64,000 nt of DNA from Escherichia coli (GCF_051903065.1 NZ_CP178438.1), one strand, 5' to 3'. Shown: positions 6,534 through 7,826, numbered from the stretch's first letter. Numbers and translations are program-made. The notes: a model not told the origin generated them from the sequence alone.

Positions 6534-7826
6534 TTGCTACAAGGCGCTGGCTGGTTATTGTTGCTGGCCCCGTTTTTCTTCTTCACCTATGGATCTCTTA
6601 ATCAGTTCACCGCGGTTCAGGACCTTAACAGCCATGATATCCCCAGTCAGGTATTCGGTTGGGAAACGGCGATCCCTTTTCTTCCCTGGACTATTGTTCC
6701 TTACTGGAGTCTGGATCTTTTATATGGATTTTCGCTGTTCGTTTGTAGCTCGACATTCGAACAGCGCCGACTTGTCCACCGGCTTATTCTGGCAACGGTA
6801 ATGGCCTGCTGCGGTTTTTTTCTCTACCCGCTGAAGTTTAGTTTTATCCGTCCTGAAGTTAGTGGGGTGACAGGATGGCTATTTTCGCAACTTGAACTGT
6901 TTGATCTGCCTTATAACCAGTCTCCTTCGCTGCATATTATTCTCTGCTGGCTACTTTGGCGTCACTTTCGTCAGCATCTGGCTGTGAGGTGGCGTAAAGT
7001 CTGCGGCGGATGGTTTTTACTCATCGCCATTTCGACGCTGACAACCTGGCAGCATCATTTTATTGATGTCATCACAGGGCTGGCGGTAGGTATGTTGATT
7101 GACTGGATGGTACCCGTCGACCGTCGTTGGAATTATCAGAAACCTGATCAACGTCGAATCAAAATAGCACTGCCATATGTCGTAGGCGCGTGCGCGTGCA
7201 TTGTGTTGATGGAGCTAATGATGATGGTTCAGTTATGGTGGTCAGTCTGGTTATGTTGGCCAGTATTATCGCTACTCATTATTGGCCGTGGGTACGGTGG
7301 GCTTGGCGCGATAACAACAGGGAAAGATAGTCAGGGGAAACTCCCGCCCGCCGTTTACTGGCTGACATTGCCCTGGCGTATCGGGATGTGGCTATCTATG
7401 CGTTGGTTTTGTCGTCGCCTGGAGCCGGTGAGCAAAATGACTGCTGGTGTTTATTTAGGGGCGTTTCCACGACATATTCCGGCACAGAATGCGGTTCTGG
7501 ACGTCACCTTTGAATTCCCTCGAGGACGAGAGACAAAAGATCGACTCTATTTCTGTGTACCGATATTGGATCTGGTGGTTCCAGAAGAGGGGGAACTCCG
7601 ACAGGCCGTGGCGATGCTGGAAACATTACGCGAAGAGCAAGGCAGCGTTCTGGTCCATTGTGCATTGGGATTATCGCGCAGTGCGCTGGTGGTGGCGGCA
7701 TGGTTGTTATGTTACGGACACTGTAAAACCGTTAATGAAGCGATTAGCTATATTCGAGCCAGACGCCCGCAGATTGTGCTGACAGACGAACACAAAGCGA
7801 TGCTGAGATTGTGGGAAAACAGGTAA
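6534..7826 (+). CDS. ynbD: Membrane PAP2-like phosphatase fused to dual-specificity protein phosphatase domain
   Basis: ORF 6438-7826 overlaps ynbC; start placed at TTG 6534 (GTG 6510 also possible); PAP2-like SPSLH / [11 protein letters not shown] motifs and PTP signature [10 protein letters not shown]. Confidence 0.65.

Follow-up and report, generated by a model that had tools for sequence, protein, structure and literature searches.

The ynbD gene of Escherichia coli joins a membrane domain of the PAP2 superfamily to a Cys-based dual-specificity phosphatase domain, and the active sites of these domains are predicted to lie at different faces of the inner membrane. Our preferred reading, to which we give about an even chance, is that YnbD sits in the inner membrane and works on lipid head groups with two separate active sites, one at each face, as part of a conserved accessory phospholipid pathway. 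That this pathway is encoded by ynbA, ynbB, an acyltransferase gene that is absent in E. coli, ynbC and ynbD is held with the same evenly balanced confidence. The domain fusion itself is already in databases and common, so it is not new; the placement of the membrane domain in a transferase branch, the sites on opposite faces and the five-gene cluster shared across phyla appear to be unreported in the literature that we searched.

Identity and distribution of ynbD

The window analysed is a stretch of 64,000 nucleotides from E. coli (NZ_CP178438.1), and positions are counted from its first letter. The plus-strand frame at 6534-7826 is E. coli ynbD (Table 1). RefSeq places the start at GTG 6510, 24 nt upstream of TTG 6534, which gives a protein of 438 residues and makes ynbD overlap the stop codon of ynbC by 11 nt. 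The gene is the last of the series ynbA, ynbB, ynbC, ynbD; next come azoR, on the opposite strand, and hrpA. Of 5426 complete E. coli genomes, 4620 contain a match to the ynbD DNA, which covers at least 80% of the gene in 4601; about 15% of the complete genomes are without it.

A sequence-only reading of this DNA (the original prediction) had described PAP2-like motifs in a multi-helix N-terminal part, an HCx5R phosphatase signature further on and, from these, a fusion of two phosphatase domains. The motifs are present, with NQSPSLH at residues 128-134 and a C3 motif at residues 167-182 in the membrane part, and HCALGLSRS at residues 375-383, carrying Cys376 and Arg382, in the phosphatase part. 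That a membrane PAP2-superfamily domain is fused to a Cys-based dual-specificity phosphatase domain is confirmed by Pfam, by the homologue family and by the structural model; both folds were detected, and in the domain search DSPc exceeded its cut-off in the E. coli protein, while PAP2 and PAP2_3 fell short there and exceeded theirs in homologues. The fusion is not unusual, as had been supposed. RefSeq already annotates it ('ynbD: phosphatase PAP2/dual specificity phosphatase family protein'), and a scan with one genome per species found it in at least 593 species genomes, which include Enterobacterales, Pseudomonas, Xanthomonadales, Burkholderiales, Bacteroidota, Terriglobia, Hyphomicrobiales and Elusimicrobium. 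At E <= 1e-30, 348 sequence clusters (50% identity) match the fusion.

Tian et al. (2020) identified ynbD by BLAST as the fourth putative membrane PAP2 gene of E. coli and noted that YnbD had been assigned no function (PMC7413402). Cells without any of the four PAP2 genes were viable. Overexpression of ynbD rescued neither a strain deficient in undecaprenyl-pyrophosphate phosphatase nor a pgpA pgpB pgpC strain; in vivo YnbD took the place neither of PgpB, YbjG or BacA nor of PgpA, PgpB and PgpC (PMC7413402). Our literature searches found the function of YnbD treated in no further paper and nothing on a lipid product of the ynb operon, and the Lipocone superfamily preprint does not mention YnbD.

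Table 1 Features of the ynb cluster, with positions in the window
Feature	Position	Strand	Remarks
ynbA, CDP-alcohol phosphatidyltransferase	3240..3851	+	Pfam PF01066; predicted maker of the phosphatase domain's substrate
ynbB, CDP-diacylglycerol synthase, CdsA paralogue	3851..4747	+	Pfam PF01148, E 4e-70; PMC6362211
ynbC, monoacylglycerol-lipase-like hydrolase fused to SAM methyltransferase	4763..6520	+	Pfam Hydrolase_4 and Methyltransf_20
ynbD coding sequence	6534..7826	+	430 codons from TTG 6534, then stop; intact frame
N-terminal six-helix PAP2-superfamily domain, probably of sphingomyelin-synthase/Aur1 type	6534..7118	+	residues 1-195
Glu44, candidate head-group pocket residue	6663..6665	+	first predicted periplasmic loop; invariant in 95/95 and 82/82 sequences; putative role
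PAP2 motif C1 remnant KFSFIRP	6834..6854	+	Arg106-Pro107 kept; lysine not conserved, spacing shortened
PAP2 motif C2 NQSPSLH, with invariant His134	6915..6935	+	N128, P131, S132 and H134 invariant, n=95 homologues
PAP2 motif C3 S167-x6-H174-x3-D178-x3-G182	7032..7079	+	residues 167-182; S167, H174 and D178 invariant
TM7-TM8 hairpin and basic amphipathic helix, predicted to tether the phosphatase domain to the cytoplasmic membrane face	7149..7418	+	model helices 206-229, 234-261, 272-293
Cys-based dual-specificity phosphatase domain, predicted cytoplasmic	7419..7826	+	residues 296-430
Asp346, predicted general acid	7569..7571	+	invariant in 95/95 and 82/82; aligned with Asp in 'PIPDF' of Tk-PTP
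Phosphate-binding loop HCALGLSRS	7656..7682	+	residues 375-383; Cys376 nucleophile, Arg382; C376, G379 and R382 invariant

The N-terminal membrane domain

Taken alone, the E. coli protein scores 21.2 bits with the Pfam model PAP2_3 and 16.1 bits with PAP2, under the respective cut-offs of 27 and 27.2. Among 95 diverse full-length homologues (32-52% identity to the query), PAP2 is matched by 72 and PAP2_3 by 66, with best E values of 2.6e-8 and 2.4e-11, and some homologues lie above the Pfam cut-off (P0216, at 37.7 bits, and P0170, at 30 bits, are examples). The model of residues 1-210, built on 105 sequences, reaches a pLDDT of 95 and a pTM of 0.90 and contains the helical core of the PAP2 fold. 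The triad His134, His174 and Asp178 is invariant in the 95 homologues and at the 82 loci compared below, and His174 is the predicted nucleophile. As read from alignments and model, the PAP2 assignment is solid at the level of family and structure and weak from the E. coli sequence alone.

Membership of the superfamily (the Pfam clan that includes PF01569 and PF14378) leaves the branch to be assigned, and here the basic residues are informative. YnbD is without two of the three that belong to the motifs of PAP2 phosphatases. At C1, position 106 is Arg in 72 and Lys in 14 of the 95 homologues and Pro107 is found in 88, while position 101, which lies four and not six residues ahead of the Arg-Pro pair, is Arg in 40, Gln in 26 and Lys in only 14. 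At C3, position 168 after the serine is Val, Thr or Ala and never Arg. A profile alignment places this motif in register with the 'SRxxxxxHxxxDxxxG' of B. subtilis PgpB and human LPP1 and shows the arginine to be missing. Neither the complete C1 (K-x6-R-P) nor the C3 arginine (S-R-x5-H) of the PgpB/LPP/LpxE monoesterases is therefore present; compared with E. coli PgpB and Aquifex LpxE, both PAP2 lipid-phosphate phosphatases, YnbD lacks the C1 lysine and the C3 arginine.

The solved structures nearest to the modelled domain, and those giving the longest alignments, are SMSr and Aur1, ahead of the lipid-phosphate phosphatases. The spacing of the triad is also similar, at 134/174/178 in YnbD, 255/294/298 in Aur1 and 301/344/348 in SMSr (PMC12122681). 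A predicted six-helix core with a His-His-Asp triad at the exoplasmic leaflet, without those C1 and C3 basic residues, is the arrangement of the SMS/Aur1 type. When a profile of this domain on its own was searched against the sequences of solved structures, it gave only marginal matches at C3 (E 0.055-0.1), which were useful for aligning residues and of no use for classification. We conclude that the N-terminal domain probably belongs to the head-group-transferase branch of the PAP2 superfamily rather than to the lipid-phosphate phosphatases; the structural margin over the phosphatases is modest, and the transferase branch is therefore a preference and not a proof.

In enzymes of the Aur1/SMS type, attack on a phosphodiester sets diacylglycerol free, and the phospho-head group is transferred to an acceptor. 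Human SMSr (PDB 8ijr/8ijq) is only 13% identical to YnbD, has no fused phosphatase domain and, unlike YnbD, does not keep the Arg-Pro remnant of C1. SMSr also has a PE-specific phospholipase C activity (PMC12594915). The fungal IPC synthase Aur1 (PDB 9ivc) differs from YnbD in having two extra N-terminal helices and in needing the Kei1 subunit.

The C-terminal phosphatase domain

The assignment of the C-terminal domain is unambiguous. Pfam DSPc (PF00782) matches it at 96 bits (cut-off 33.5) with E 1.7e-27, and the HCx5R loop, the upstream general-acid Asp and the fold of a Cys-based dual-specificity phosphatase are all found. Its best solved relatives are the archaeal Tk-PTP and human dual-specificity phosphatases. 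Among natural solved structures the family profile matches Tk-PTP (PDB 5z59/5z5a/5z5b) best, with E 2.5e-20, and Tk-PTP aligns with YnbD at the general-acid Asp and at the phosphate-binding loop; it is a soluble single-domain protein, and the likeness is uninformative on substrate.

Mitochondrial PTPMT1 (PDB 3rgo/3rgq), a phosphatidylglycerophosphate phosphatase, is the fifth-ranking hit when solved structures are searched with the profile, and every protein-directed dual-specificity phosphatase ranks below it. Its likeness to YnbD is one of fold and pathway logic only. YnbD, unlike PTPMT1, is fused to an eight-helix membrane part, and the loops differ. The phosphate-binding loop of PTPMT1 is basic, CKAGRSRS, where YnbD has CALGLSRS. 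Across the YnbD family the loop reads CALG[LYF]SRS and is hydrophobic, with no Lys or Arg ahead of the catalytic Arg, so that the basic loop of PTPMT1-like phosphatidylglycerophosphate phosphatases is absent. Comparison of the domain's structure with lipid-directed and protein-directed relatives did not separate the two groups. Phosphatidylglycerophosphate is an unlikely substrate of this domain, given that ynbD does not rescue the pgpA pgpB pgpC strain.

Predicted topology

Hydropathy and models agree on eight membrane helices. Averaged over the 95 homologues, the segments predicted to be cytoplasmic (the N-tail, 71-83, 143-155, 195-212 and the linker 257-296) carry 18.2 Lys and Arg residues, against 3.9 in those predicted to be periplasmic; the linker has a mean of 5.4. 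On this distribution of charge YnbD is predicted to have both ends in the cytoplasm; all three PAP2 motifs would lie at the periplasmic leaflet, and the phosphatase domain would be cytoplasmic. The active sites of PgpB, Aur1 and SMS are oriented as is predicted here for the membrane domain. A cytoplasmic location also suits the need of the phosphatase for a reduced cysteine. The NCBIfam model NF009025 spans residues 208-426 as a single unit (E 4e-29), which suggests that the TM7-TM8 hairpin and the phosphatase domain form a module of their own.

Active sites on opposite membrane faces could not work simultaneously on one molecule. For both steps to belong to a single pathway, the lipid would have to flip between them.

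A conserved cluster of lipid genes

The neighbours of ynbD homologues were counted at 82 loci across Proteobacteria, Bacteroidota, Terriglobia and Elusimicrobium. A YnbA homologue stands beside the gene at 78 of the 82, the hydrolase part of YnbC at 80, its methyltransferase part at 81 and a YnbB homologue at 66; a PlsC-type acyltransferase with the HX4D and FPEGTR motifs is found at 61. The E. coli cluster is without the acyltransferase gene, and Proteus, Providencia, Morganella and Xenorhabdus have ynbA-ynbC-ynbD only. Clustering of all reading frames around 80 loci gave no further conserved partner and no dedicated enzyme for a head-group precursor, and the neighbour analysis found no sphingolipid or inositol-phosphate synthase genes accompanying the cluster. 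In some metagenomic homologues a PlsC-type acyltransferase is fused to the C terminus of the PAP2-phosphatase protein. One such PAP2-phosphatase-acyltransferase triple fusion lies on a metagenome contig too short to reveal its neighbours.

The best NCBIfam matches of YnbA are archaetidylinositol-phosphate and phosphatidylinositol-phosphate synthases, both under their cut-offs, and its best solved relative is the phosphatidylinositol-phosphate synthase of M. tuberculosis (6h53, E 5e-8, over nearly the full length). Synthases of this kind work on a phosphorylated alcohol, which leaves them with a product in need of a phosphatase. Of the four canonical Asp positions in YnbA, two are occupied by Asn, without exception among 78 homologues. 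The N-terminal half of YnbC matches solved monoglyceride lipases (E 4e-15). YnbB makes CDP-diacylglycerol, its overproduction raises the level of the glycolipid MPIase, and it is reported to be cold-induced (PMC6362211, PMC7018664, PMC11413397). A scan of positions 2900-8700 for promoters and terminators was uninformative, with promoter-like sites less frequent than in shuffled sequence. We also considered a role in phosphoglyceride-linked enterobacterial common antigen and rejected it, as the cluster occurs in Pseudomonas, Xanthomonadales and Bacteroidota, which are not known to have this antigen.

Set against these results, the functional part of the original prediction fares unevenly. Its 'lipid-phosphate phosphatase' stands as regards the PAP2 superfamily, and is probably wrong as regards the branch, with SMSr and Aur1 nearest and the C1 lysine and C3 arginine missing family-wide. 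Its idea that the phosphatase domain has a phospholipid head group, and not protein, as substrate agrees with the lipid-gene cluster, the PlsC-fused homologues and the presence of PTPMT1 among the best profile matches. The predicted placement of the two active sites at opposite faces was not part of it.

Discussion

We tentatively propose the following sequence of events for the pathway. YnbB would supply CDP-diacylglycerol, which YnbA would join to a phosphorylated alcohol. The cytoplasmic phosphatase domain of YnbD, through Cys376, Arg382 and Asp346, would take the terminal phosphate off the resulting phosphatidyl-alcohol-phosphate, and the dephosphorylated lipid would then flip to the outer leaflet. 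There the PAP2 domain may act in the manner of sphingomyelin synthase and Aur1, with His174 attacking the phosphodiester and diacylglycerol leaving, after which the phospho-head group would go to an acceptor or, in a phospholipase C-type outcome, to water. The logic of a synthase followed by a phosphatase is shared with PgsA and the Pgp phosphatases, with phosphatidylinositol-phosphate synthase and BT_1525 in Bacteroides, and with mitochondrial PTPMT1.

A comparison can be drawn with Bacteroides, in which the same three activities have been demonstrated by experiment for the set BT_1522, BT_1523 and BT_1525 (PMC9246714). BT_1522 is the Aur1 homologue of that set. The Bacteroides phosphatase is PgpA-like and a separate protein, whereas that of YnbD is Cys-based and fused. 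SMSr offers a further analogy, as an enzyme that either hands phosphoethanolamine on to ceramide or works as a phospholipase C specific for PE. E. coli, however, is not known to contain ceramide or to have a dedicated synthase for inositol phosphate, so that neither the acceptors nor the donors known from these analogous enzymes apply, and YnbD, if it is a transferase, would have to use an acceptor other than ceramide.

Several lines of evidence point to this proposal of two sites at two faces. These are the invariant catalytic residues, the spacing of the triad, the missing basic residues of C1 and C3, the topology suggested by charge, the cluster of lipid genes, the acyltransferase fusions, the relatives of YnbA that use phosphorylated alcohols, the rank of PTPMT1 and the Bacteroides cluster. 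Against it stand the failure of ynbD to rescue the pgpA pgpB pgpC strain (PMC7413402), the split of Pfam matches between PAP2 (72 members) and PAP2_3 (66), the retention of the C1 Arg-Pro pair, which is a feature of the phosphatase branch, the lack of a conserved head-group-precursor gene in the cluster, and a phosphatase fold that does not separate lipid from protein substrates. Asn at two canonical Asp positions means that the chemistry of YnbA may be atypical, and among the Ynb proteins a lipid product, substrate or activity has been reported for YnbB only.

In its widest form, which we consider possible while leaning against it, the proposal would make ynbA-ynbB-(acyltransferase)-ynbC-ynbD a complete pathway, present in many Gram-negative phyla, for an undescribed modification of phospholipids or phospho-head groups, with YnbD as a bacterial, non-sphingolipid counterpart of the sphingomyelin and IPC synthases. 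YnbD would then couple dephosphorylation of a freshly synthesised phosphatidyl-alcohol-phosphate in the cytoplasm to head-group transfer onto an envelope acceptor in the periplasm. The five-gene lipid cluster is conserved from Enterobacterales to Bacteroidota and Elusimicrobium. Were the mechanism true, E. coli and many other Gram-negative bacteria would be able to build or alter a lipid head group that has escaped standard lipidomics, probably for want of operon expression in laboratory culture; the envelope would gain a further route of modification with chemistry of the sphingomyelin-synthase type, and functions could be given to four long-standing y-genes of E. coli.

The closest contender, unlikely in our view and yet to be taken seriously, is that the N-terminal domain is an ordinary periplasmic PAP2 monoesterase acting on a lipid phosphate or pyrophosphate (for example diacylglycerol pyrophosphate, PA, LPA or a lipid A phosphate), and that the C-terminal domain works separately as another lipid phosphatase. 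The original prediction was of this kind. The conserved His and Asp of C2 and C3, the C1 Arg-Pro, the match of 72 of the 95 homologues to the general PAP2 model and the RefSeq name as a phosphatase would all be expected of such an enzyme. Nevertheless, the family as a whole lacks the C1 lysine and the C3 arginine that hold the monoester phosphate, the best and longest structural matches are the transferases SMSr and Aur1, and ynbD complements strains deficient neither in undecaprenyl-pyrophosphate phosphatase nor in phosphatidylglycerophosphate phosphatase (PMC7413402). A different role, which we think improbable, would link the operon to MPIase, a glycolipid built on diacylglycerol pyrophosphate; YnbB, and perhaps YnbA, would make GlcNAc-PP-diacylglycerol, and the periplasmic PAP2 site would recycle or trim the pyrophosphate-linked lipid, much as PAP2 enzymes do with undecaprenyl pyrophosphate. 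PAP2 enzymes commonly act on lipid pyrophosphates, and the altered metal-binding motif of YnbA could reflect an unusual acceptor. MPIase is essential, however, while deletions of ynbB and ynbD are viable and ynbD is missing from about 15% of complete E. coli genomes; moreover, the MPIase level is unchanged in a ynbB knockout, several genera hold ynbA-ynbC-ynbD without ynbB, and our literature searches gave no paper tying YnbA, YnbC or YnbD to MPIase.

Two further explanations carry little weight with us. It is very improbable that the C-terminal domain is a protein tyrosine/serine/threonine phosphatase which regulates a membrane process and is fused to PAP2 for localisation only, since the conserved cluster consists of lipid enzymes only, across phyla, some homologues carry a fused acyltransferase domain, no conserved kinase or regulator gene lies nearby and the phosphate-binding loop CALG[LYF]SRS is hydrophobic. 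More doubtful still is that the E. coli operon is a silenced and partly decayed remnant without current function, which has lost its acyltransferase and is expressed only on activation by BglJ-RcsB. The acyltransferase gene of 61 of the 82 loci is indeed missing in E. coli, the ynbA promoter is activated by BglJ-RcsB and needs it for activity (PMC3950696), the deletions have no growth phenotype, and in one strain an IS1 element sits inside the cluster. A remnant is nonetheless hard to reconcile with the intact ynbD, complete in its catalytic residues, of 4601 of 5426 genomes, with the polyphosphate accumulation caused by a transposon insertion in ynbC that is possibly polar on ynbD (PMC2435150), or with the report that YnbB is induced by cold and important in the cold (PMC11413397).

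Composition of the ynb cluster

A gene for a PlsC-type acyltransferase lies inside the cluster in 61 of the 82 related loci, and E. coli is without it. Here ynbB and ynbC are separated by only 15 nt, and no remnant of the acyltransferase gene was detected within the whole 64-kb window. Proteus, Providencia, Morganella and Xenorhabdus (loci L011, L013-L019, L021 and L022) keep only ynbA-ynbC-ynbD, with neither ynbB nor the acyltransferase gene nearby, and this suggests that the cluster comprises a three-gene core, ynbA-ynbC-ynbD, and an optional two-gene supply module.

Within the core, the canonical first and third Asp residues of the CDP-alcohol phosphatidyltransferase motif of YnbA are replaced by Asn. 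Since this variant is invariant across 78 homologues, its sequence conservation argues that it is the mark of a subfamily and not of decay. YnbC (window 4763-6520) is a monoacylglycerol-lipase-like hydrolase fused to a SAM methyltransferase, the latter belonging to the uncharacterised Pfam family Methyltransf_20, and a transposon insertion in ynbC has been found to cause polyphosphate accumulation (PMC2435150).

The YnbD protein and variation of its gene

NCBIfam NF009025 matches YnbD residues 208-426 (window 7155-7811; E 4e-29), taking the membrane hairpin and phosphatase domain together as a single unit, and this match is stronger than that of Pfam DSPc to the phosphatase domain alone; NF009025 is a 546-residue 'hypothetical protein' family, about 300 residues of which lie outside the YnbD match.

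The start of ynbD is ambiguous, with three candidate codons within window 6438-6536. As the frame from the GTG overlaps the ynbC stop (TGA, 6518-6520) by 11 nt, the sequence suggests that the two genes may be translationally coupled.

Features of the ynb cluster and the regions compared
Feature	Position	Strand	Description
Acyltransferase gene, regions compared	window 4747-4763 vs L003:7580-8221 and L039:11746-12366 (related loci)		
ynbD start TTG	6534	+	430 residues; start used in the original observation
ynbD start GTG	6510	+	438 residues; RefSeq choice
ynbD start ATG	6438	+	longest frame; within ynbC
YnbA variant motif	ynbA, window 3240-3851, residues 71-100		N-x2-D-G-x2-A-R-x8-G-x3-N-E-x2-D-x3-D

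Identity to the window ynbD (6534-7826) reaches at least 99% in only 53 of the 4620 matching E. coli genomes and is 95-99% in 4548; about 15% of complete E. coli genomes have no ynbD match at all. The most similar ynbD is that of strain ECNB21-M121. At its locus, L001, an IS1A element (3395-4092) separates ynbB from ynbC, and the upstream ydbD, intact in the window (941-3076), is frameshifted there.
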